The notes: generated from the letters alone by a model not told the origin. Positions 10,746-55,334 are shown, counted from the stretch's first letter. The stretch is 64,000 nucleotides of DNA from an uncultured Chloroflexia bacterium (GCA_963712745.1 CAVQJC010000002.1:96001-160000), one strand, 5' to 3'. Numbers and translations are program-made.

Positions 10746-10765
10746 GACCCTACCCCCCCCTCACT

Positions 10766-10841
10766 TGCGCGGGCCGGGTCCGCCAGTGGCTTGGCACGGT
10801 CCCGGCGGCCAGGGTATGGGCCGTGCCTCATCGCCTCCCGC
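10766..10841 (-). promoter_or_regulatory. Conserved structured 5' leader, copy 1
   Basis: 70/76 identical to 12377-12452, in the same position upstream of a secreted-protein gene. Confidence 0.6.
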
Positions 10842-10965
10842 GTATGCGTGGATTCTCCCACTCGTGGCTATCAGGTCAGCCTGAGACCAGGTACCGGCTG
10901 CGTATCCACCAAGTGCGAGATGGGCCCAAGGGCGGCGGTGCTGCGGGACGCGCTGGGAATAAGAT

Positions 10966-12356: not shown

Positions 12357-12376
12357 GACAAGCCTCCTTCGGCTCA

Positions 12377-12452
12377 TGCGCGGGTCGGGTCCGCCAGTGG
12401 CTCGGCGCGGCCCCGGCGGCCAGGGTGTGGGCCGCGCCTCATCGCCTCCCGC
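12377..12452 (-). promoter_or_regulatory. Conserved structured 5' leader, copy 2 (contains a 22-codon uORF, 12442-12374)
   Basis: Near-identical to 10766-10841; perfect 10-bp stem GGCGCGGCCC/GGGCCGCGCC. Confidence 0.6.
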
Positions 12453-12561
12453 TCTGCTGGGTATGACGCCACAGCAGTAGCAGGTCGTTCAAGAGGCGGA
12501 GGTCACGAAGGCTCGCGGCGCTGTTTTCAGGGGTCCGTGGCGCTGTCCTCAGTGCCCAGCC

Positions 12562-14265: not shown

Positions 14266-14359
<94 letters not shown>

Positions 14360-42990: not shown

Positions 42991-43090
42991 CCGCTGCCCG
43001 GAGGCTCGACACCCGATCCGGTGGTCGCTACGATCGAGCCACGGTCGCCCGACTCGACCGACCTGGCGGCCGGATGCTGGAGGGAAGCAG

Positions 43091-43997
43091 ATGCATAGCT
43101 CGGATCGCCGGGTCGCCTTCACGGGTGCCCTGGCACTGTCACTGGCGCTCGTTTCGCCGGTCATCGCGCAGGATGGCTCGGAGCCGGTGCCCTATCTCGA
43201 TGACCAGGGGAACCAGCTGGGAACCCTGCTCATCCGCGATTTCGCGGACCCCTTCACCGAGTTCGATCCCGCGTCGCCACCGGCAGAGGGTTCCCGCTAC
43301 GCCGTCCTCACCCTGACCTTCGAGGCCGCTGAGGACCAGGCCTTCCCGGCCGACCCGTACCAGGTGCAACTGCTCGACACGGACGGCTACGTCCACCTCT
43401 CGGGATGGGTCCCACGGCCGGCCGGTTCGGTCGTGCCTGATCTCCAGAGCCAGACACTCGCGCCGTTCGACCGCATCAGCGGTGTCATCCCCTACGTCCT
43501 GCCGGCGGAGGCGGAGATCGCCAGCGTCGTCTACCGCGGCGACGGCCGGCGCCTCATGCCCATCGTCGAGGTCGGAGACCGGGGCAGCGTCGCTGTCGGG
43601 GAGCCTCGCCTCATCGAGGACGCAGCCGGTACCGTCTACGGCGACGTCACGGTACGGGAGATCGATCGATCCGTTCACGGAGTTCGATCCCAACGGACCG
43701 CCCGCTGAGGGTATGCGCTACGTCCTCCTCGACACGGCCTTCACGGCGGCCGAGGACCAGGCCGTCGGGGCCAGCCCGGCCAATGTCGGGCTGGTCGGTG
43801 CCGACGGCATGATGTACTGGCCGAGCTGGGTCCCACGGCCGCAGCCGTTCCTGCTGCAGTACGTCGAGTCGCAGCCGCTGTCGCCGGGGGATCGCGTGTC
43901 AGGCGTCATCGGCTACGCCATCCCCCAGGACGTCGTCATCGACTCGGTCGTCTACAACCCTGAGGGCAACCGCTACCTCTCGCTCGTCGACCTCTAG
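43091..43997 (+). CDS. Secreted protein with two tandem homologous (DUF4352-like) domains; frameshift near 43665
   Basis: DPFTEFDP..PPAEG.RY...AAEDQA...WVPRP...SQ.L.P.DR.SGVI occurs twice, across two frames. Confidence 0.78.
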
Positions 43998-44000
43998 GCC

Positions 44001-44040
44001 GGCGTCCGGGTGCTCGATGGCATCCGGGTGCTCGATGGCA
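44001..44040. repeat. 18-bp tandem repeat x2
   Basis: GGC(G/A)TCCGGGTGCTCGAT. Confidence 0.7.
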
Positions 44041-44139
44041 GACAGCCCGCGGCCGTCGGCGGTCTCGGGCTGCTACCGCCCGGGCCATCGGGCTCGCGTC
44101 GAGACCGGATGCTGACGTGCGCGGCTGCTGACGTTCGCA

Positions 44140-44169
44140 TTGACACCGGGGCGCGCGGTCCGCTACTGT
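44140..44169 (+). promoter_or_regulatory. Sigma70-type promoter of the aro-trp operon
   Basis: TTGACA-N18-TACTGT. Confidence 0.7.
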
Positions 44170-44179
44170 CCGAGGCCTC

Positions 44180-44206
44180 ATGCACCAGTACTGGTACTTT
44201 AGCTAG
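44180..44206 (+). CDS. Aromatic-amino-acid leader peptide MHQYWYFS
   Basis: ATG CAC CAG TAC TGG TAC TTT AGC TAG between the promoter and a terminator. Confidence 0.8.
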   Translation: MHQYWYFS

Positions 44207-44259
44207 CGGGTACGAGGCGGCCGGGTAGATCCCGGCGGCAGAGGCACTCGTGCCCGCTG

Positions 44260-44293
44260 ACGCAGGACCCCGACGGGCCTGCGTTTTTTGTTT
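44260..44293 (+). terminator. Attenuator terminator
   Basis: ACGCAGG-ACCCCGACGGG-CCTGCGT followed by TTTTTGTTT, upstream of aroF. Confidence 0.85.
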
Positions 44294-44374
44294 GCCTCGC
44301 ACGACTCCGAGCACGAGCCAGACCACAGCTGCCGGCCAGGCAGGACACGAACCGAGGACGAGGGTGGTACCGAG

Positions 44375-45745
44375 ATGATCATCGTGATGCGCACCGAGGC
44401 GACGCAGGAGGAGATCGACGACGTCAAGCAGGTCGTCGCCGACGAGGGCCTTGAGACCTACGTGATGGTGGGCCAGGAACGCATCGTCATGGGCGTCGTG
44501 GGTGTGGGCGTGGAGCGGGTCCAACATGTCGAGCTGATGCCCGGCGTCGAGCAGTGCATCCGTGTCAGCAAACCCTACAAGCTGGCCTCCAGCGAACACC
44601 ACCCCGACAGATCGAGTGTTCGCGTGGGATCCGTGGAGATCGGTGCGGGCGCACCGCTGGCCGTCATGGCCGGGCCGTGCGCCGTGGAATCGCGCGAACA
44701 GTTGCTGGCCACTGCCCGCTGGGTGAAGCGCGAGGGGGCCACCTTGCTGCGCGGAGGTGCCTTCAAGCCGCGCTCCTCGCCGTACGCATTCCAGGGCCTC
44801 GGCGTGGAGGGCCTGCGGCTCCTCGCTGAGGCACGCGAGGAGACGGGGCTGCCGGTCGTCAGCGAGATCACCGACCCCGCCGACGTGCCCGTCTTCGAAG
44901 ACTACGTCGACATGCTCCAGGTCGGCGCCCGCAACATGGCCAACTTCGTCCTGCTCAAGGCCGTGGGCCAGTCACGCAAGCCGGTGCTCCTGAAACGCGG
45001 CCTCTCAGCCACCATCGACGAACTGCTGATGGCGGCCGAGTATGTCCTCTCCTCGGGCAATCCCAACGTCATCCTCTGCGAACGCGGTATCCGCACGTTC
45101 GAGACGGCCACCCGCAATACGCTGGACCTCTCGGCCGTGCCGGTCATCCAGGAGCGGACGCACCTGCCCGTCGTCGTCGACCCCTCGCATGGCACGGGGC
45201 ACCGCACTCTCGTCCGGCCGCTGGCCGTGGCCGGTGCCGCGGTTGGCGCCGATGGGATCATCATCGAGGTCCACCCTGACCCGCCCACGGCCCGCTCAGA
45301 CTCCGAGCAGTCGCTCTCCTTCCCCGAGTTCGGCGACCTCATGGACGACCTGCGCCGGCACGAGTTCTTGCGCCAGCCGACGGCCGCGCACGCCCACGTC
45401 CGCATCGAGCCGCCCACCGAGCGGAAGCACCTCCGTGCCCGCATCGACGATGTCGATGCGCGCCTCGTGGCGCTGCTCAAGGAGCGAGCAGAGCTCTCGG
45501 TGGCGGTCCAGCAGACGCGCGAGGCGGGCGACCACGGCCATGACGTGGGCCGCGAGCGTGAGCTCATCGAGAAGGCAGCGCACGGGTCGGAGGGTGTGCT
45601 CACGCCGGAGGAGCTCGAGATGGTCTACGGCGCCATCCTGCGCGTTTCGCGCTCCGCTCAGCGGCGAAGCGCTGCCGCTGCAGCAGCGGCCGATGGCGGA
45701 GCCGATCCGGACGGCGCGCTGGCCATTCCCAACGGCGGCAAGTGA
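44375..45745 (+). CDS. aroF: DAHP synthase (type I-beta) with N-terminal ferredoxin-like regulatory domain and C-terminal chorismate mutase
   Basis: MIIVM N-domain; [34 protein letters not shown]; C-terminal [22 protein letters not shown]. Confidence 0.93.
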
Positions 45746-47085
45746 TGGACGTGGCGGCCGGCCGGCCCGGAGAAGGGACGGTCGTGGCGGCCCCGTCGCT
45801 GGTCGGCGGGCTGCGCCTGCCGGCGGACAAGTCGGTCGCCCACCGCGCGCTGCTCTTCAACGCCATGGGCTTCGGCGAGGCCACGGTGACGATGTCTCGT
45901 CCGGGCGGGGACGTGCTCTCGATGGCCGACGCCCTGCGCACGCTGGGCGCAGTCACGTCCCTCGATACGACCGAGGACGGAAGCGTGGCCGTGCTGGTGC
46001 GCGGCGGCGGCACGCAGAAGGCTGCCGTCCTGCCGGGTAGCGGCGGGGAGATGCTCGATTGTGGCAACGCCGGTACGGCCATGAGGCTGCTCGCGGGAGC
46101 TCTTGCTGGACGTCCTGCCGCGGCCACGCTCGTCGGCGACGAGTCGCTCTCGAGCCGGCCCATGGAGCGCGTGGCCGTGCCCTTGCGGCGTGTCGGCGCG
46201 GGGGTCGTGACCGAGGACGGGCACGCACCGCTCCGGATCGAGGGCAGGCGGCCCCTGGCCGCGGTGGCGCATGAGCTGAGGGTCGCCAGCGCGCAGGTCA
46301 TCGGCTGTCTCACGCTGGCCGCCCTGGCCGCCGACGGCACCACCATCATCACCGCCCCTGGACCGACTCGCGATCACAGCGAACGGATGCTCGCCTGGCT
46401 CGAGGCGCCGGTCCGCCGTGAGGGCTACGTCACCACCATCGATGGCCCGGCCGGCTTCCCCGCCCGTTCGATCGACGTGCCCGGCGACATCTCCGCGGCC
46501 GCCGCCTGGCTGGTCGCGGGTGCCATCCATCCTGATGCCCACATCGTCATCGAGGAAGTCGGGCTCAATCCTTCGCGGACCGGCATCATCGATGTACTCC
46601 GCGAGATGGGCGCGGACATCAAGGTCGCCTCGGGCGGGCCTACCGCACGCTGTCCCGAGCCCGTCGGCACCATCACCGTCAGCGGAGGCCGGATGCTGCG
46701 CGGCATCGACCTCGCCGGCGACCGCGTCGCCGACGTCATCGACGAGCTGCCGCTCATCGCCGTGGCCATGGCGGCCGCCGACGGCGTGAGCACGTTGCGC
46801 GATGCCGCCGAGTTGCGCGTGAAGGAATCCGACCGCATCGCCTTGACAGTGGAGAACCTGCGATCCATCGGCGCCGGGGCCGAAGAGCGGCCAGACGGCT
46901 GGGTCGTCTCCCGCGGAGCCCCCCGCGACGCGTCGATCCGGACCGATGGCGACCACCGCATCGCCATGTCGTTCGCGATCGCCGGCCTGGCCGGCGTTTC
47001 GGGTACCGTTGCCATCGACGATCCCGCCTGTGCGGCCGTCTCCTATCCCACCTTCTGGACAGACATGGAGCGTCTGACCCCATGA
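45745..47085 (+). CDS. aroA: EPSP synthase
   Basis: DKSVAHR, DCGNAGT, RDHSERML, ELRVKESDRI, DHRIAM. Confidence 0.96.
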   Translation: MDVAAGRPGEGTVVAAPSLVGGLRLPADKSVAHRALLFNAMGFGEATVTMSRPGGDVLSMADALRTLGAVTSLDTTEDGSVAVLVRGGGTQKAAVLPGSGGEMLDCGNAGTAMRLLAGALAGRPAAATLVGDESLSSRPMERVAVPLRRVGAGVVTEDGHAPLRIEGRRPLAAVAHELRVASAQVIGCLTLAALAADGTTIITAPGPTRDHSERMLAWLEAPVRREGYVTTIDGPAGFPARSIDVPGDISAAAAWLVAGAIHPDAHIVIEEVGLNPSRTGIIDVLREMGADIKVASGGPTARCPEPVGTITVSGGRMLRGIDLAGDRVADVIDELPLIAVAMAAADGVSTLRDAAELRVKESDRIALTVENLRSIGAGAEERPDGWVVSRGAPRDASIRTDGDHRIAMSFAIAGLAGVSGTVAIDDPACAAVSYPTFWTDMERLTP

Positions 47086-48362
47086 CCTTGCGACGCCTTC
47101 GGCTGCTCACCGCCGGCGAGTCCCACGGACCCGGCATGTCCGGGATCGTCGACGGCCTGCCCGCCGGCCTGCGCGTCTCGACGGCCAAGGTCGACGAGGA
47201 GCTGGCACGTCGCCAGCACGGCTACGGCAGCGGACGGCGCATGCAGATCGAGCGCGACCGCGTGCGCTGGACCGCCGGGCTGCGCTTCGGACGAACGCTG
47301 GGCTCTCCCCTCGCCTTCTCCATCCCCAACCGCGATTGGGCCAACTGGGAAGAGCGCATGTCGCTGGAGCCCACCGCCTCATCGCGGCGGCCCAAAGCCA
47401 TCACCCTGGCCCGGCCGGGTCATGCCGACCTGGCGGGTGCCATCAAGTACGACACCGGCGACATCCGTAACGTGCTCGAGCGCGCCTCGGCCCGATCGAC
47501 GGCACCGCGGGTGGCCGCGGGGGCGATCTGCCGTCAGCTGCTGGAGGACTGCGGGGTACGCATCTGGTCGTTCGTCGACCAGCTGGGCCCGGTGCGGGCA
47601 TTCGGCGGCGTCGACGAGCCGGCGACCCAGGTGCCGGTGGGGTGGATCGAACAGGATCGCCGGGAGCCCACGCCCCTTCGCTGTCCCGACCCCGAAGCGG
47701 AGCTGGCCATGATGGCCGAGGTTGACGCCGCCATCGCCGCCGGGGACTCGGTCGGCGGCTCGTTCATCGTGATCGCTGAGGGCATGCCCGTGGGCATCGG
47801 CTCCAACGCCGAGTGGGACACGCGCATCGACTCCGCGGTCGCCGCGGCACTCATGGGCATCCAGGCGGTCAAGGGTGTCGAGATCGGCCTGGGTTTCGGT
47901 GCGGTCGGGCGGCGAGGCAGCGCGGTCCATGACGAGGTCGACCCGGGCGCTCCGGCCTGGCAACGCAAGACGAACCGCGCCGGTGGCACGGAGGGCGGCA
48001 TGACCAATGGTGCCGCCGTCGTGGCCCGGGTCGCGGTCAAGCCGGTGGCGACGCTGCGCAAGCCGCTCGATTCGGTCGACCTTGCGACGGGCGAGGTCCG
48101 ACGCGCTCACATCGAACGGAGTGACGTGGCCATCATCCCGCGTGCCGCCGTGGTCGGCGAGGCCATGCTCGCGCTGGCCCTGGCCGACGCCCTGCTGGCC
48201 GACCTCGGCGGCGACACCCTGGGCGACGTGAAGGCAGCCGTGCGCCGCCGGCGGCGTCGATCGATCGGGCCGCGCGGCACGGAGACGTCCGCTCGCACCC
48301 TCGAGGCACTGCCCGAGGACGCCGCGGAGGAGGCCACCGTGGTGGAGGGCACAGACGCATGA
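47082..48362 (+). CDS. aroC: Chorismate synthase
   Basis: TAGESHG, RPGHAD, ERASAR, GGTEGGMTNG. Confidence 0.97.
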   Translation: MTLRRLRLLTAGESHGPGMSGIVDGLPAGLRVSTAKVDEELARRQHGYGSGRRMQIERDRVRWTAGLRFGRTLGSPLAFSIPNRDWANWEERMSLEPTASSRRPKAITLARPGHADLAGAIKYDTGDIRNVLERASARSTAPRVAAGAICRQLLEDCGVRIWSFVDQLGPVRAFGGVDEPATQVPVGWIEQDRREPTPLRCPDPEAELAMMAEVDAAIAAGDSVGGSFIVIAEGMPVGIGSNAEWDTRIDSAVAAALMGIQAVKGVEIGLGFGAVGRRGSAVHDEVDPGAPAWQRKTNRAGGTEGGMTNGAAVVARVAVKPVATLRKPLDSVDLATGEVRRAHIERSDVAIIPRAAVVGEAMLALALADALLADLGGDTLGDVKAAVRRRRRRSIGPRGTETSARTLEALPEDAAEEATVVEGTDA

Positions 48363-49144
48363 ACGAACACCCGCGCGACTTCAAGTTGCTGGGCCACGGC
48401 ATCGCCTACTCGGCCTCACCCGCGATGATGAATGCCGCCTTCGCCTCGCTCGGGCTCCCGCATCGGTATGCGCTTGCGGACATCCCGGAGGAAGACGTGC
48501 CCGCGGTCGTCGACTCGTTGCGATCGACCGATGCCGGCGGAGCGAACGTGACCGTGCCGCACAAGGGCGTCGTCGTTCCCCTCCTCGACGACGTCTCGGA
48601 CGACGCGCGGGAGGCTGACGCTGTCAACACCATCGTCTGTCGCAACGGCCGACTGATCGGCCACAACACCGACATGCCGGCCATGATCGACGTCATCAGC
48701 GACCTGCGGCCACACGGTTCGGAGCATGCCATCATCCTCGGTGCCGGCGGTGCCGGCCGAGCGGTGCAGCTGGCCCTCAGCAAGTTGGGGGTGGACCGGG
48801 TCAGCGTGCTACATCGCTCGGACGCCTCGATCGAACGACTCCCACGCCTCATCGGCACTGCTGATCTGCTCGTCAACGCCACGCCCGTCGGCACCGGCAG
48901 CGATCAGAGCCCCGTGCCGGCCGAGCTCCTGCGGGATGACCTGGCTGTGCTCGACCTCGTCTACCGTCCTGATCCCACACGCCTCGTGAGGGACGCCCGG
49001 AAGGCAGGCGCGGTCGCGGAGGCCGGGTCAGCCCTGCTGCTCGGCCAGGCCTGGCGCGCCTTCGAGCTCTGGCTGGAGCGACCCGCACCAATCGAAGTGA
49101 TGCGCGCCGCGCTGGCGCGCGAACTGGAGAAGCACGATGACTGA
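48359..49144 (+). CDS. aroE: Shikimate dehydrogenase
   Basis: SASP, NVTVPHK, AVNT, HNTD, GAGGAG, NATPVG. Confidence 0.95.
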   Translation: MNEHPRDFKLLGHGIAYSASPAMMNAAFASLGLPHRYALADIPEEDVPAVVDSLRSTDAGGANVTVPHKGVVVPLLDDVSDDAREADAVNTIVCRNGRLIGHNTDMPAMIDVISDLRPHGSEHAIILGAGGAGRAVQLALSKLGVDRVSVLHRSDASIERLPRLIGTADLLVNATPVGTGSDQSPVPAELLRDDLAVLDLVYRPDPTRLVRDARKAGAVAEAGSALLLGQAWRAFELWLERPAPIEVMRAALARELEKHDD

Positions 49145-50756
49145 CACGATCGTCCTGGTCGGCCTGTCCGGCAGCGGCAAGTCCACCATCGCTGAGCCGC
49201 TCGCGGAGCGACTGCGCCGGCCGCTCATCGACGTGGACGCCGCCATCGAGGAACGGGTCGGGATGGATCCGTCCACCATCATCCATGAGCGTGGCGAAGC
49301 CGCCTTCCGTGAGCTGGAGGTCGAAGCAGTGGCGCGCGCCTGCGAGGTGGACGGCGCGGTCGTCGCGACGGGCGGCGGGGCCATCATCGACCCACTGAAC
49401 CGCTGGGCGCTGTGGCATGCGGGGGCGGTCGTCTGGCTCGACGCTCCGGATGACGTGCTGCTTGGCCGCCTGGCCCGCCACTACAAGCCTCGCCCGATGC
49501 TCGAGGGCAACGCGGCTGATCGCTTGGCCGCGCTTCGGGGCTCGCGCTCTCCGTTCTACCGTGCGGCCGACATCCATGTCGATGCCACGGCGCCGGTCGA
49601 GGAGGTCATCGAGACCGTCATCTCGAGAGTGGAACAAGGGGTGGGGCAGTCGCGCCGGCTCTACGACTCCGAGGTCAAGCAGGACCACCCGATGATCCCC
49701 GCCACCTCGCGCATCGTCTTCGGAGAGCATCTGGACGAAGCCGTCTTCGGCGACGTACTGGGTCCGGTCAGCACCGGTTCCCCCGTGGTGGTCGCCGACA
49801 GAGGAGCCGCCAGGGCGCTGCCCGAGCTCCTGGGGGCCCTGCCGCAGGCTCGCCTGCTGCGTATCGCCGGTGGTGAGCGCTACAAGCGACTGCGCAATGT
49901 GGAACGCCTGCTCGAGTCAGCCAGCACGCTGGGCGCCGAGCGAGGGGATGCCTGGATCGGCGTGGGCGGCGGGACCGCCACCGACCTGGTCGGAACCGCT
50001 GCCGCCCTGTACCTGCGGGGGGTGCCATTCATGGCCGTCCCGACAACGTGGCTGGGCATGACCGATGCGGCCATCGGCGGGAAGGTCGCAGTGGACCTGC
50101 CGAACGCCAAGAACGCAGCCGGTGCCTTCTGGCCGCCCTCGGCAGTGGTCGGCGATATCGCGAGCCTGGGGCCCTTGCCCCGTGCGCGACGGCTGGACGG
50201 CATGGCCGAGTCGCTCAAGAGCGGACTCATCGGTGACCGGGTCCTGTGGCACCTCATCGAGACGCGGGGACGAGCAGCGTTGCGGAATGACCAGGCTGCC
50301 CGCTACGCCATCATCGATCGCTCCGTGCAGCTCAAGCTGGGCATCGTCAGCCGCGACCTGTTCGAGCGCGGTGAGCGCCGCACGCTCAACCTCGGGCACA
50401 CCATCGGCCACGCCCTCGAAATCGAGAGCGGGTTCCGGCTGCCTCACGGGCAGGCCGTGGTGCTCGGCATCCGTGCCGTCGCCGCCGTCGCCCGGCGCTG
50501 GGGTGCGGAACCCGACCTGGCCGATCAGATCGACAGCGTCGCCTCAGACCTGGGTTTCGAGCTGCGGCGAGCCTTCGATACCGACGTGGTCAAGCGCGCA
50601 CTCCAGAGCGACAAGAAACGACACCTCGGACGCCAGCGCTGGATCATGCCCATGGCCGTGGGCACGGTGATGGAGGTCGACGACGTCACGGATGCCGAGC
50701 TCGATCTTGCCCTCGCGACGATCGCAGCGGACGGCCAGAAAGGGGTTTCAGCATGA
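49137..50756 (+). CDS. aroKB: Bifunctional shikimate kinase / 3-dehydroquinate synthase
   Basis: GLSGSGKST, FRELE, ATGGG; then VPTT, DAAIGGK, LNLGHTIGHALE. Confidence 0.93.
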   Translation: MTDTIVLVGLSGSGKSTIAEPLAERLRRPLIDVDAAIEERVGMDPSTIIHERGEAAFRELEVEAVARACEVDGAVVATGGGAIIDPLNRWALWHAGAVVWLDAPDDVLLGRLARHYKPRPMLEGNAADRLAALRGSRSPFYRAADIHVDATAPVEEVIETVISRVEQGVGQSRRLYDSEVKQDHPMIPATSRIVFGEHLDEAVFGDVLGPVSTGSPVVVADRGAARALPELLGALPQARLLRIAGGERYKRLRNVERLLESASTLGAERGDAWIGVGGGTATDLVGTAAALYLRGVPFMAVPTTWLGMTDAAIGGKVAVDLPNAKNAAGAFWPPSAVVGDIASLGPLPRARRLDGMAESLKSGLIGDRVLWHLIETRGRAALRNDQAARYAIIDRSVQLKLGIVSRDLFERGERRTLNLGHTIGHALEIESGFRLPHGQAVVLGIRAVAAVARRWGAEPDLADQIDSVASDLGFELRRAFDTDVVKRALQSDKKRHLGRQRWIMPMAVGTVMEVDDVTDAELDLALATIAADGQKGVSA

Positions 50757-51191
50757 GGATCCTGCTACTCAACGGGCCCAACCTGGGCCGTCTCGGCAAG
50801 CGCCAGCCTGGAGATCTACGGCTCCACCACGCTGGCGGAGGTGGAAGCCGCGGCCGCCGAACACGCGGTCAGCCTGGGCCACTCCCTCGTGGCCTACCAG
50901 TCAAATCACGATGGTGCGCTCATCGATCGCATCGAAGAGCGCGACTACGACGCCATCGTCATCAACCCCGGTGCCCTGACCCACTACGCATGGTCGTTGC
51001 ACGACGCGTTGGTCGGCGCTGAGTGCCCGGTCGTGGAGATCCACATCAGCGACATCTACGCCCGCGAAGCCTGGCGCCATTTCTCGGTCGTCGAACCGGT
51101 CGCCAGCCACCGCATCATGGGACATGGCTGGCGCGGGTATCTCGAAGCCATCGACTTCCTTCACGCCGAGGCCGCCGAACGGTCTCGCTGA
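50753..51191 (+). CDS. aroQ: Type II 3-dehydroquinate dehydratase (frameshift near 50810)
   Basis: LNGPNLGRLGKRQP|EIYG..., QSNH, INPGALTH, VEIHIS; one extra G splits the frame. Confidence 0.92.
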
Positions 51192-51214: not shown

Positions 51215-52663
51215 ATGACCGCCCAGCTCCCGCGACCCGGCCTGGCCGGCGTGGCCGCCGTCGAGATCAGCGCCGACACCATCTCGCCGGTGACGGCCGC
51301 GCTCCGTCTGCACGACCAGGACCGGCTCGCCTTCATCCTCGAGTCGGTGGAGGGCGGTGCCCGCTACGGACGCTACTCCATGGTCGGCGTGCGCGGCCGC
51401 ATCCTCGCCGTCGAGGGTGACGAGGCCATCGTGCGCAGCCACGACTACGCCGAGCTCGATCGGTTCCCTGCGAGCGATCCGCTCGAGGCCCTGCGTCGGA
51501 TGCTGCCGGACGCGCCGCCCCAAGGCGAGCTTCCGGTCTCGCTCGCTTCGGGTGTCGGCTATCTCTCGTACGAGGCGGCGGCTCGCTGGGAGAAGCTGCC
51601 GGTGCCGGAGGCCGATCCCATCGGCCTGCCGCTGGCGCTCTTCCACCTGCCCGACGTGCTCGTCGTCTTCGACCACCTCGCGCAGACCGCCACGCTCGCG
51701 ACCATCGACGGGCCTGGAGCCCTCGACCGCCTGGCTGATGCACGAACGATGCTGGCCCGACCGTCGAGGATCGAGGGCGCTGTGCCCATCCCGACCGAGG
51801 CCGCGCGGCACACCCCACCGGCGGCCGATGGCCGCTACGAAGCCGGCGTCGCCAGCCTCGTGCACGACATCCGCGCGGGCGAGATGCTGCAGGCGGTGCT
51901 GGCACGGCGCTTCAGCCTGCCCTGCTCGGTGGGGCCCCTCGAGATCTACCGCTCGCTGCGACGCATCAATCCATCGCCGCACCTCTTCGCCATCGACCTT
52001 GGGCCACGGCGCTCGGTGCTGGGTGCCTCACCGGAGCTGCTCGTGCGCGTCCGCGACGGAGTGGTGTCCACGCGACCCATCGCCGGCACACGGCCCCGCT
52101 CGGTCGACCCGGTCGCCGATGCGGCGCTGGAGGCGGACCTGCTGGCTGACCAGAAGGAGCTGGCCGAACACGCGATGCTCGTGGACCTCGCGCGCAACGA
52201 CGTGGGGCGGGTGGCCGTGCCTGGGAGCGTACGTGTACCGGCGCTCCATTCAATCGAACGCTACTCGCACGTCATGCACATCGTGTCGGAAGTGGAGGGC
52301 GAGCTGCGCGGCGACCGCGATGCCTTCGACGCTGTGCGCTCGGTGTTCCCAGCGGGCACGCTCAGCGGCGCGCCCAAGGTGCGTGCCATGCAGGCCATCG
52401 CAGAGCTGGAGAACGAGCAACGCGGCCCCTACGGTGGCGCCGTGGGCTTCTTTGCCCCCGACGATGTGGAGGCCGCCATCACCATCCGGGCGATGGTGCT
52501 CAAGGACGGTACCGCCTATGTCCAGGCCGGGGCCGGCATCGTGGCCGACTCGGTGCCGGAACGCGAGTCCGCGGAAGTGGCGGCCAAGGCCGGGGCCATC
52601 CTGAGTGCCCTCGCCGAGGCCGAAGCCATCTACGGGATCAACGGATCGGAGAGCGTGCGATGA
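51215..52663 (+). CDS. trpE: Anthranilate synthase component I
   Basis: FILESVEGG (LLES-type), SPELLV, PIAGTRPR, EHAMLVDLARND, PAGTLSGAPK. Confidence 0.88.
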   Translation: MTAQLPRPGLAGVAAVEISADTISPVTAALRLHDQDRLAFILESVEGGARYGRYSMVGVRGRILAVEGDEAIVRSHDYAELDRFPASDPLEALRRMLPDAPPQGELPVSLASGVGYLSYEAAARWEKLPVPEADPIGLPLALFHLPDVLVVFDHLAQTATLATIDGPGALDRLADARTMLARPSRIEGAVPIPTEAARHTPPAADGRYEAGVASLVHDIRAGEMLQAVLARRFSLPCSVGPLEIYRSLRRINPSPHLFAIDLGPRRSVLGASPELLVRVRDGVVSTRPIAGTRPRSVDPVADAALEADLLADQKELAEHAMLVDLARNDVGRVAVPGSVRVPALHSIERYSHVMHIVSEVEGELRGDRDAFDAVRSVFPAGTLSGAPKVRAMQAIAELENEQRGPYGGAVGFFAPDDVEAAITIRAMVLKDGTAYVQAGAGIVADSVPERESAEVAAKAGAILSALAEAEAIYGINGSESVR

Positions 52664-53283
52664 CCACCGCCACGACAGACCTGCCGGGCGCCGGCCGACG
52701 GATCCTGCTGCTCGACAACTACGACAGCTTCACCTACAACCTGTACCAGTATCTGTGTCAGCTGGGCGCGGACGTGGAAGTGGCACGCAACGACGAGATC
52801 TCGGTCGCGGAGATCGCGGCCAAGGTTCCGGATGGCATCGTCATCAGCCCGGGCCCCTCGCGGCCGGAGAACGCCGGCATCTCGCTCGACGTCATCCGCC
52901 ACTTCGGGCCGACCACGCCGGTACTCGGGGTCTGCCTGGGCCACCAGTCGATCGGGCTGGTCTACGGCGGCGAAGTGGTCACCGTGGAGCCGGTGCACGG
53001 CAAGAAGTCGGCCGTCGACCATCGCGGGCAGGGGATCTTCGAGGGGTTGCCCACGCCGCTCGAGGCCGGACGCTACCACTCGCTGGCAGTGGCTCGCAAT
53101 TCTGTGCCGGAAGTCCTGGAGGTGACCGCTACCAGTCCCGACGGGCTGGTGATGGGGCTGCGGCATCGCGAGCACCCGGTCGAGGGCATCCAATTCCACC
53201 CCGAGTCGATCCTCACCGAGTTCGGCATGACCATGCTTGGCAACTGGCTGCGCTCGCTGCCGGCGGCGCACGCGCATCGCTGA
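52660..53283 (+). CDS. trpG: Anthranilate/aminodeoxychorismate synthase component II
   Basis: DNYDSFTYNL, SPGP, GVCLGHQ, RYHSL, QFHPES. Confidence 0.92.
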   Translation: MTTATTDLPGAGRRILLLDNYDSFTYNLYQYLCQLGADVEVARNDEISVAEIAAKVPDGIVISPGPSRPENAGISLDVIRHFGPTTPVLGVCLGHQSIGLVYGGEVVTVEPVHGKKSAVDHRGQGIFEGLPTPLEAGRYHSLAVARNSVPEVLEVTATSPDGLVMGLRHREHPVEGIQFHPESILTEFGMTMLGNWLRSLPAAHAHR

Positions 53284-53289
53284 TCTTGC

Positions 53290-54276
53290 TCAGGTCGCCG
53301 TCGACGGCATCCGGATCCACGTCTTGCCGGGCGCGTCCGCGCTCGACAGGAATGCCGCCTGTGCCTCGGCGAAGGGGTACTCGCTGCTGATGACGCGTCC
53401 GGGTGAGACCGAACCGGCATCCAGCAGGGAGGTGGTCCAGCGGAAGTCGCCGGGGTGGTCGTACGTCAACGATCCGCGCAGCACGAGCTGACGGCGGACA
53501 AGGGTCTCCGCGTTCAACTCGAACTGCCGCTTCTCCAGGCCGAGCTCCACGATGGTGGCACCGACCTCGCTGCGGCGCACCGCCTCGGCCAGCGCCTCGG
53601 GTACGCCGGTCGTGTCAACCACCAGGCCGAACTGTCGTTCGTCGTCGGGGTCCAGCTCGGTCACCCCGAGGGACCCGCCCGCGAACGCGACTCGTTCGGC
53701 GTTCGGATCGCTGACCTGGACGCGGACCCCGCGCCGCTGCAGGGCCAGGCTCATGAGCAGGCCTTGTGCGCCGACGCCCAGGACGAGGCTCTCCTGTGGC
53801 AGCTGACCTGGCAGGCGCCGGAGCGCCGTCTCGACCACGGTCAGCGGCTCGACGCAGACCAGATCCTGCGGCTCGGCAGGATCGACGGGCCACGCCCGGC
53901 TGGCCGGCACCACGACCAGCTCCGCCAGGGCCCCGGGCCAATTCATGCCGACCGAACGCCGTCGCCGGCATCCCGACGTCTGACCGCGGCGGCACTCCGC
54001 GCAATCGCCGCAGGCCACGTTCGGCTCGATGACCACCAGCTGTCCCTGGCGGCTGGGCTCGACGTCCCTTCCGACCGCCTCGATCGTGCCGAAGGCCTCG
54101 TGTCCCATGATCCAGGGGTAGTCGGGTGCCGTCCATTTGCCATGGAACACGCTCAGGTCGGACCCGCACAGTCCGACGCCGCCGACGGCGATGCGCACCT
54201 CGTCGGGCGCGACGTCGGGTACCGGCACGTCGTCGACGACGATACGACCGGGCTCGACCAGCAAAGCAGCTAACAC
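53290..54276 (-). CDS. Zinc-dependent alcohol dehydrogenase (MDR)
   Basis: GLCGSD, GHE, CGDCAEC...C, GVGAQG. Confidence 0.92.
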   Translation of the reverse strand: MLAALLVEPGRIVVDDVPVPDVAPDEVRIAVGGVGLCGSDLSVFHGKWTAPDYPWIMGHEAFGTIEAVGRDVEPSRQGQLVVIEPNVACGDCAECRRGQTSGCRRRRSVGMNWPGALAELVVVPASRAWPVDPAEPQDLVCVEPLTVVETALRRLPGQLPQESLVLGVGAQGLLMSLALQRRGVRVQVSDPNAERVAFAGGSLGVTELDPDDERQFGLVVDTTGVPEALAEAVRRSEVGATIVELGLEKRQFELNAETLVRRQLVLRGSLTYDHPGDFRWTTSLLDAGSVSPGRVISSEYPFAEAQAAFLSSADAPGKTWIRMPSTAT

Positions 54277-55334
54277 GTCACGTCCTCCCCGATGCGCGTG
54301 GGCTCCGTCCGGCCCACCGATTCCTTCGCCGGCTCCAGCAATCGGCTGGGGTTCAAGACCAACATACGGTCGAGGTCCATCCGTGACACGCCTCGCTCCA
54401 GGAGGGCCGGCAGGACCCGTCGAAACAGGTGTGCCATGTCCCAGTGCGGGGCATGCGCCGCTCGCCACGACGGCGGCGTCACATAGCTGAAGCATGCCGC
54501 GTCGTGAGAGAGGACCATCCGGTCGGCATAGCCCAGACCCGCCAGCGCCACCACGGTCGCGATGCGGGCATCGTCGCCCATCACGTGCTCCATGCCGAAG
54601 CGGTCCAAGCCGATGGTCGATCCGTTGTCCATGATGGCGCGCAAGTAGTCAAGGTCGTCGGTGTCCCCCGAATGCCCGATGATGATCCGGTCGGGGGACA
54701 CGCCCCGCGCGACGAGGAAGGACTGTTGACCGAGCCCGTTGCGCTGGCGGGCTTCCGAGTGGGTCGTGATCGGGACGCCCGTCTGTTGGTGTGCGATGGC
54801 GGCGGCAGACAGGACCCGCTCCTCGGCCGCGCTCAACACGGCGCCTGCCGACATCACCTTGATCATGCCTGCCCTGATCGTCGTGCCCCCGATGCCCTCC
54901 TCGATATCGCGCACGAATAGCTCGGTGAGCGGATCCGGCTCGTCGATCAGGCGACCCGGCCCACGGAACTCGAAGTAGAGCGGCACCCCGGCCGCGCTGT
55001 AGAGACCGGTCGAGGCGATGAGGTTGATGGCCACGCGATCAGCGACCTCCGCGACGAGGCTGACGTCCCGGCCAAGACCGACCACGGTCAGGTCGACCAC
55101 CGTCCGGACTCCGAGCCCGTGCAACGCGCTCAGCTGACGGACGGCCAGGTCGACGGCCTGGGACTCGTTCCAGCCGAGTGCGGGCATGTTGCGCTCGAGC
55201 TCCTGGTGACGCACGAAGATGTGCTCGTGGATGAGCGTGACCCCGAGCTCCCCCGCGTCCACCTCCCCGCGGAACGTGGAGACGCCACGCTGCCTCGCGC
55301 CGCCAGGCCATTCCCCGGGCGTTGCCTCTGTCAC
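54270..55334 (-). CDS. Phosphotriesterase-related (PTE/Php) lactonase
   Basis: TLIHEH, GLGRD, ITTHS, IIGHSGD, LSHD. Confidence 0.9.
   Translation of the reverse strand: MTEATPGEWPGGARQRGVSTFRGEVDAGELGVTLIHEHIFVRHQELERNMPALGWNESQAVDLAVRQLSALHGLGVRTVVDLTVVGLGRDVSLVAEVADRVAINLIASTGLYSAAGVPLYFEFRGPGRLIDEPDPLTELFVRDIEEGIGGTTIRAGMIKVMSAGAVLSAAEERVLSAAAIAHQQTGVPITTHSEARQRNGLGQQSFLVARGVSPDRIIIGHSGDTDDLDYLRAIMDNGSTIGLDRFGMEHVMGDDARIATVVALAGLGYADRMVLSHDAACFSYVTPPSWRAAHAPHWDMAHLFRRVLPALLERGVSRMDLDRMLVLNPSRLLEPAKESVGRTEPTRIGEDVTC

Follow-up and report, generated by a model that had tools for sequence, protein, structure and literature searches.

In Escherichia coli, trpL and pheL exemplify attenuation by a leader peptide, with each of the two leaders reading one amino acid and with a clear antiterminator in trpL. 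Multivalent attenuators, in which one leader serves several end products of a branched pathway, are represented by ilvGMEDA (Ile/Leu/Val) and thr (Thr/Ile); these concern other amino acids than the aromatic ones, have longer leader peptides and use classical alternative helices. Upstream of a DAHP synthase gene, a leader-peptide attenuator was reportedly described by Neshat et al. in 2014 at aroR/aroF of Corynebacterium glutamicum. This aroR leader was predicted in one article (PMC4046766) and appears in another as a Phe-Tyr-Phe leader before aroF, whose read-through rises on Phe limitation and which reportedly does not respond to Tyr (PMC11802643); the former article also cites a paper whose title refers to a leader peptide without a ribosome binding site at C. 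glutamicum ilvB. The uORFC-13-1 motif from Acholeplasma and environmental sequences is presented as a candidate uORF with 24 representatives that is always located before aroF, has promoter elements and lies directly 5' of a terminator stem, the fate of which is proposed to be set by Phe codons (PMC8632094). Mixed aromatic leader peptides upstream of aroF are known already from C. glutamicum, and Acholeplasma provides a candidate.

Here we analyze a leader upstream of aroF in a 64,000-nt stretch of DNA from an uncultured Chloroflexia bacterium (GCA_963712745.1 CAVQJC010000002.1:96001-160000; the whole stretch is called the window, and positions are counted from its first letter). We propose that it is probably a ribosome-mediated leader-peptide transcription attenuator of a Chloroflexota aromatic 'supraoperon', a reading for which aromatic leader peptides before aroF provide precedents. 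As in trpL and pheL, a leader peptide with end-product codons and then a terminator lie ahead of biosynthetic genes. Compared by description only, the locus also resembles C. glutamicum aroR, a ribosome-mediated attenuator with a short leader ORF and mixed aromatic codons upstream of a DAHP synthase gene. The latter belongs to another phylum and has no Trp codon, whereas the window operon covers the whole shikimate pathway together with chorismate mutase and trpEG, and its uORF has eight codons, almost no 5' UTR and no detectable antiterminator. The uORFC-13-1 motif, likewise compared by description only, is a candidate from Mollicutes, for which only Phe codons are mentioned. What is new here is the lineage (phylum), the Trp codon where trpEG joined the operon, the very short, near-leaderless uORF and the lack of a recognizable antiterminator. 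A first-pass annotation of the window had put forward multivalent attenuation of this pathway as not known to be described for the lineage. This was overstated, given that the C. glutamicum leader and the Acholeplasma candidate precede it; what stands is that neither an aroF leader-peptide attenuator in Chloroflexota nor a leader with all three aromatic codons before aroF was found described in full-text searches of openly accessible articles. If the proposed mechanism is true, then a single eight-codon frame sets the whole common aromatic pathway plus chorismate mutase and anthranilate synthase, in a phylum that is poorly studied and mostly uncultured.

The leader and the operon it precedes

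The leader begins with a promoter-like site on the plus strand (44140-44169), which can be read directly: a -35 element TTGACA (44140-44145), an 18-nt spacer and a -10 element TACTGT (44164-44169). The latter matches TATAAT at three of six positions, and a simple E. coli-type consensus scan called no promoter in 43400-45000; TTGAC[AG], a spacer of 17-18 nt and TAnn[GT]T nevertheless recur in all eight homologous leaders described below (alignment A2, pattern scan). The ATG of the uORF, at 44180, follows the -10 hexamer after 10 nt, which leaves a predicted 5' UTR of just 3-7 nt. The uORF itself (44180-44206, plus strand) reads ATG CAC CAG TAC TGG TAC TTT AGC TAG and encodes MHQYWYFS, with the presumptive regulatory codons TAC TGG TAC TTT at 44189-44200 and the stop codon at 44204-44206. 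There is no other in-frame start 5' of this ATG back to a TGA at 44141. Because no conserved Shine-Dalgarno sequence precedes the uORF and the predicted 5' UTR is so short, it is from conservation that we infer its translation. Two tandem direct repeats are located just 5' of the -35 element, at 44001-44036 (2 x 18 nt) and 44106-44137 (2 x 16 nt), the second of which ends 2 nt ahead of TTGACA; they are not seen in the inspected sequence of a close relative (L001, see below) and might be a regulator binding site.

The uORF runs directly into a long helix of 56 nt (44204-44259, plus strand), the first three bases of which are the TAG stop codon. In the minimum free energy (MFE) fold, this helix is composed of a 5' arm (44204-44218), an inner hairpin (44220-44236) and a 3' arm (44247-44259 together with 44238-44239), and its outer part pairs 44205-44216 with 44247-44258 through 11 Watson-Crick pairs and one G-U. 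An intrinsic terminator (44260-44289, plus strand) follows, consisting of a bulged hairpin (44260-44284; -16.7 kcal/mol on its own) and a T6 run (44284-44289), 85 nt 5' of aroF. A simple pattern scan called no terminator in 43400-45000, because the stem has a bulge. In the absence of scan calls for either, the promoter and terminator assignments are based on folding and conservation. Folding of the 120-nt leader yields -60.6 kcal/mol, compared to -45.5 +/- 3.9 in 200 dinucleotide shuffles, none of which is equally stable (z = -3.85). The first-pass annotation had already pointed out a TTGACA-N18-TACTGT promoter, a nearly leaderless MHQYWYFS frame 10 nt further on, the stem between 44205-44216 and 44247-44258 and a U-tailed terminator before aroF, and all of these are borne out, the stem as part of the longer helix.

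The first gene behind the terminator, aroF::CM (44375-45745, plus strand), encodes a type I-beta DAHP synthase (NCBIfam NF006421, 6.1e-142) with an N-terminal ferredoxin-like domain and a C-terminal chorismate mutase, the models of which match residues 348-433; the Pfam domains are those listed for P0001, a protein identical to the aroF::CM product. More than 100 close AroF::CM homologues exist, and the names on AroF homologues place the host in Chloroflexota. It is followed on the same strand by aroA (45742-47085), aroC (47082-48362), aroE (48359-49144) and an aroK-aroB fusion (49137-50756), all assigned by NCBIfam matches and joined by overlapping stop and start codons. Next comes aroQ (type II dehydroquinase, Pfam DHquinase_II; 50753-51191, plus strand), the frame of which is interrupted: DHquinase_II positions 30-137 are in the frame of 50841-51191, while the start is in the frame of 50753, and a comparison with the intact gene of L001 places a single additional base near 50809. 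The interruption could reflect an error in the assembly, or the gene could be a true pseudogene in an otherwise complete pathway. The unit closes with trpE (ATG at 51215, to 52663; NCBIfam TIGR00564, 6.5e-137) and trpG (52660-53283; NCBIfam TIGR00566, 9.1e-68), also on the plus strand, and the next ORF (53290-54495) runs in the opposite direction. A search for terminators inside the operon gave no convincing candidate. The gene order aroF::CM-aroA-aroC-aroE-aroKB-aroQ-trpE-trpG accounts for the complete set of seven shikimate steps and for the entry enzymes of both branches, so the scope claimed earlier (the whole shikimate pathway plus trpEG) is correct and extends to chorismate mutase.

Conservation of the leader and of its codons

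Relatives were collected by a genome-contig scan that gave at least 600 matching stretches, at least 593 of which were confirmed; 80 loci were kept. Only one of these, L001, is a close relative (AroF identity 87%). Its uORF encodes MTRYWYFS and agrees with that of the window in its final six codons and stop; promoter spacing is the same, and helix and terminator are almost unchanged. From the uORF to the T-run, 99 of 111 positions (89%) are identical between the two. Neutral-like sites are less similar, with 65% at third positions of identical aroF residues and 62% in the terminator-aroF spacer, and identity ahead of the -35 element is 51%. Six more Chloroflexota loci (L002, L004, L007, L009, L046 and L051; AroF identity 53-58%) carry a homologous leader, and mean column identity in the leader alignment A2 is 71%. 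Their ATG lies 10-13 nt past the -10 element, and their uORFs are longer, with 11-12 codons including two to four for Phe or Tyr and none for Trp (MSTFFFYRTPA, MEQTFYFYRNPA, MERILYFYRYPA or MCAIY[RL]F[TI][CR]PA). In these six as well, the stop codon lies inside the long helix, with the terminator directly adjoining. The first-pass annotation had proposed to look for aromatic-rich uORFs upstream of aroF orthologs, and the YWYFS kept in L001 together with the Phe/Tyr leaders of the six further loci are what such a search brings up.

The RNA structure is preserved along with the reading frame. The helix is found in all eight leaders, with two pairs switching from C-G to G-C between subgroups, and so is the terminator, with one compensatory change from C-G to U-A; a consensus fold of the eight retains both, with compensatory changes in 4 of 27 pairs. 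Helix and terminator are separated by only 0-1 nt in every case (MFE), a spacing that we considered as a mark unique to the family and dismissed as such, since the MFE gap in E. coli trpL is 2 nt. The last aromatic codon starts 6-8 nt ahead of the first helix pair in seven of the eight leaders; in the exception, L051, it is located 3 nt before the helix (MFE), and an extra Tyr codon is inside it. A covariance model built from the eight leaders (R1) scores its training sequences at 79-127 bits; the window, being one of them, matches by construction (79 bits, E 4.8e-19), and its membership is supported independently by alignment A2 and the pattern scan. No further copies were detected with R1 in 1.34 Mb (window plus 80 loci), and a strict pattern of promoter, ATG, short ORF and terminator matched only aroF leaders in the window and 14 Chloroflexota loci. 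Taken together, sequence comparison indicates that the leader is a real and conserved regulatory element.

Two alternative coding interpretations of the region were considered and set aside. In the six longer leaders (for example L046 9842-9952), the uORF stop codon TGA overlaps an ATG (ATGA), from which a second ORF of 6-7 codons extends to the loop of the inner hairpin. A reading based on a frameshift or on this second ORF was rejected, as the window and L001 do not have it and the open alternative frames differ between subgroups. A GTG-initiated frame across the window terminator is broken in L001 by a 1-nt difference.

What determines the choice of codons in these leaders? In the window uORF, four of eight codons (50%) are aromatic, compared to 3.8% of 2825 codons in the seven operon genes counted, from which arithmetic gives about 2e-6 per position for four aromatic codons in a row. 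Within the family, the aromatic codons persist while neighboring codons change, and L051 has lost one Phe codon and gained one Tyr codon compared to L046. Leaders with Tyr, Trp and Phe codons (window, L001) stand before operons that end in trpE-trpG, whereas the six leaders with Phe and Tyr codons and no Trp stand before aroF-aroA-aroE-aroC-aroKB-aroQ without trpEG, a separate chorismate mutase gene being the last in four of them. Outside the family, a leader in Ferrimonas (L070) contains WWW ahead of aroF-trpEGDCFBA, one in Anaerolineae (L052) has six Tyr in a row ahead of aroF-tyrA, and one in Terriglobia (L019) has YWYYRFW ahead of aroF-trpC; leaders in Methylomirabilis (L031) and Desulfurellales (L079) carry codons of all three kinds, and the ORFs downstream of them have no aromatic-pathway Pfam match. 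This correspondence between leader codons and operon content fits an attenuator that would read all three aromatic tRNAs. The link between Trp and trpEG in the family amounts to a single evolutionary event, the window and L001 being one lineage, and three unrelated loci come in addition. The comparative series can serve as a natural experiment on the re-tuning of attenuators as genes are added to operons. At the finer level of codon usage, Phe is encoded by TTT in the window uORF (44198-44200), compared to TTC for 46 of 47 Phe codons in the operon genes, and each of the eight leaders has TTT at the corresponding alignment position, as might be expected if slow decoding were selected for; an RNA-level constraint is possible, too.

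Might the leader not be a sensor of amino acids at all? It could conceivably be a constitutive terminator, a small RNA or a protein-binding RNA, with the short ORF being incidental. A loose screen for uORFs with at least three consecutive aromatic residues upstream of aroF picked up 10 of the 80 loci, compared to 4.45 +/- 2.0 in shuffles and 5 on the reverse complement; this is about 2-fold above shuffles and, taken alone, weak evidence, and for L078, which is among the ten, the 280 nt inspected contain no hairpin followed by a T-run. Translation of the uORF is a prediction, and the nearest Rfam match is filed as an sRNA: RF02502 (Atu_C8, Rhizobiales) aligns over its full length with 44175-44298 at 30.6 bits (E 1.9e-4 for 301 nt). 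This is below the gathering score of 50, so that the window is not a member and the match is not reported in the whole-window scan at gathering thresholds. Atu_C8 resembles the leader in having a 5' segment and a long helix with inner hairpin followed by a terminator, and differs in phylum and codons. Nothing at the leader site reached threshold in Rfam, and its amino-acid leader families (Trp, Phe, His, Thr, Leu) gave no match at E<=10 in 43000-45000 or at E<=1 in 44100-44400; the uORFC-13-1 motif had no matching family in these scans either. An incidental ORF is very unlikely in our judgment, given that ORF, start and aromatic codons are kept in eight of eight leaders while flanking codons change, that aromatic codons are so enriched over the operon genes and that codon content tracks operon content.

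From a waiting ribosome to the terminator

How might translation of eight codons control the terminator? We envision a scenario in which the transcript begins with only a few bases ahead of the ATG (44180) and its uORF is translated by a ribosome. If Tyr-, Trp- and Phe-tRNA are all charged, the ribosome would reach the TAG at the base of the helix and leave, whereupon the helix (44204-44259) and the terminator (44260-44289) would fold and transcription would stop before aroF. If any of the three tRNAs is scarce, the ribosome would wait on 44189-44200, 6-15 nt ahead of the helix base; termination would then fail, and the shikimate, chorismate mutase and trpEG genes would be transcribed. Three elements of this chain are inferred: that the uORF is translated, in which direction the response goes and how the stall makes the terminator fail.

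In textbook systems, such a link is provided by an antiterminator, and we searched for one by folding under ribosome masks. Terminator equilibrium probability under the mask proved uninformative as a criterion, because it amounts to 0.94-0.96 for E. coli trpL, too. It was replaced by folding the transcript without the terminator 3' arm, with ribosome-covered bases masked, and recording what the terminator 5' arm gains from upstream pairing; the test is in silico, and nearest-neighbor folding is blind to tertiary and steric effects. In this test, E. coli trpL gains -9.2 kcal/mol in the stalled state and 0.0 at the stop codon, and the leaders of L019, L031, L052, L070 and L079 gain -5.5 to -18.2 when stalled and -0.3 to -4.8 kcal/mol at the stop. 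The corresponding values for the window are 0 to -2.3 kcal/mol at the aromatic codons and -2.1 at the stop. The gain does not exceed -2.6 kcal/mol in size at any mask in the stall range, nothing of the terminator's -16.7 kcal/mol is regained in the antiterminated state, and no antiterminator helix was found in the window leader with constrained folds and stall masks. With masks 30-36, gains are larger in L001 (-6.6), L007 (-8.3), L009 (-6.7) and L051 (-4.8) than in the window (-2.6), and L046, L002 and L004 reach -4.2, -3.8 and -2.7 kcal/mol, respectively; a gain of -7.7 kcal/mol is also recorded for L009. The pairing partners in L001, L007, L009 and L051 differ, and the gain is often equally large with the ribosome at the stop codon.

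These values bear directly on a classical four-region mechanism, whereby the stall would melt the base of the helix and its freed 3' strand (~44251-44259) would pair with part of the terminator, either as GCCCG (44252-44256) with CGGGC (44274-44278) or in a four-pair mini-hairpin with the terminator 5' arm. Textbook systems follow this scheme, as do the other five aroF leaders that we analyzed, and a small gain at masks 30-36 is indeed present in all eight leaders of the family; yet in the window this gain remains far below the controls, and not even L001 shares the pairing partners of the window. By the footprint of a ribosome, moreover, one at the last aromatic codon would open few or no helix pairs. 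The pairing of the two pentamers had been put forward in the first-pass annotation. Both pentamers are present, but the pairing does not hold up as an alternative structure: it has 5 bp in the window and 4 bp in L001, is absent from the six other leaders and is never selected in constrained folds, and its terminator strand belongs to the 3' half, which is transcribed only once the competing 5' arm has become available. We consider a classical switch unlikely on these grounds. Hence the earlier proposal of multivalent attenuation stands as regards the conserved uORF, helix and terminator and the occurrence of the Trp codon only together with trpEG, but not as regards the alternative pairing.

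Further candidate pairings fared no better. Pairing of the aromatic-codon stretch with the terminator 5' arm (gain -1.5 to -5.9 kcal/mol, extending the long helix) was ruled out by shuffles, being weaker than the mean of 300 composition-preserving shuffles in eight of eight leaders (the fraction of shuffles at least as strong was 0.63-0.97); moreover, a ribosome on the uORF would cover it, so that the response would go in the opposite direction to the one required. Helix interior and terminator can form duplexes of -23 to -27 kcal/mol as separate strands, but these need the opening of far stabler structures and involve bases that a ribosome would mask. A test that recovers the antiterminators of E. 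coli trpL and of five other aroF leaders thus found none in the window. The family has either a weak, fast-evolving switch or another link from the stalled ribosome to termination, and this missing antiterminator is the interesting part of the family.

One such link might be direct interference of the parked ribosome with the terminator, by steric hindrance or by melting of the lowest helix pairs. As the helix abuts the terminator, the entry site of the ribosome would adjoin the terminator 5' arm. Among the possible links we prefer this one, but only tentatively, as it is less likely than not and more doubtful than the attenuator itself. A ribosome at the aromatic codons, given its footprint, would sit against an essentially intact helix, and only a ribosome advancing to the stop would unwind it. 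A bolder version dispenses with any antiterminator helix: the ribosome parked at the base of the rigid 56-nt helix, the second strand of which leads directly into the terminator, would block terminator folding sterically, the helix acting as a shortcut that brings the ribosome next to RNA polymerase. In this strict form we think the idea improbable, on a par with the classical switch. If true, a near-leaderless uORF of eight codons could in this way govern a terminator at a distance of about 80 nt from stop codon to T-run, and translation would be coupled to termination in a novel manner, by blocking through a helix shortcut.

Alternatively, a stall may mainly stabilize the mRNA. A ribosome at the extreme 5' end would then shield read-through transcripts from 5'-end-dependent decay, with the terminator being a constant partial stop. 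Stall-dependent stabilization is known from erm leaders, the uORF begins few bases from the predicted 5' end in all eight leaders, and the missing antiterminator would be accounted for. We nevertheless find this quite improbable, because it leaves the long helix and its fixed place between uORF and terminator unexplained, and because a hairpin of -16.7 kcal/mol with a T6 run should stop most transcripts.

Attenuation through tRNA charging also has to be distinguished from a mechanism resembling TnaC, in which the nascent aromatic peptide would sense free amino acid within the ribosome and cause arrest at the stop codon. The stop codon is located within the helix in all eight leaders, and the six longer uORFs all end in Pro-Ala-stop; the bases of this ending are also helix bases, so that RNA pairing explains their conservation, and the window subgroup does not have it. 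With a peptide of eight residues, which is very short, and N-terminal residues that differ between the window and L001, we regard peptide sensing as scarcely credible.

Aromatic leaders elsewhere and other RNA elements

Several of the loci outside the family are of interest in their own right. Aromatic-rich leaders before aroF with terminators and classical alternative helices are present in L052, L019, L031 and L079, where the peptides of the latter two contain YYFWFSF and FTYFFYTYYWFW, respectively. Because of these four, mixed aromatic leaders before aroF appear widespread across several phyla. In Ferrimonas balearica (L070 9721-17559), a type I-beta DAHP synthase gene heads the trpEGDCFBA operon, and its leader combines the three Trp codons with a classical antiterminator signature.

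The printed consensus of Atu_C8 opens with AUG followed by Ile, Leu and Val codons, which suggests that Atu_C8 itself may be a branched-chain leader-peptide attenuator; a literature search with its name returned only an unrelated paper. Elsewhere in the window, two matches to the c-di-GMP-II-GCG riboswitch aptamer (RF03170) lie on the minus strand about 1.6 kb apart, at 10763-10847 and 12374-12458 (67.5 and 59.1 bits, above threshold), and a tRNA-Ser gene with anticodon TGA is located at 14270-14359, also on the minus strand.
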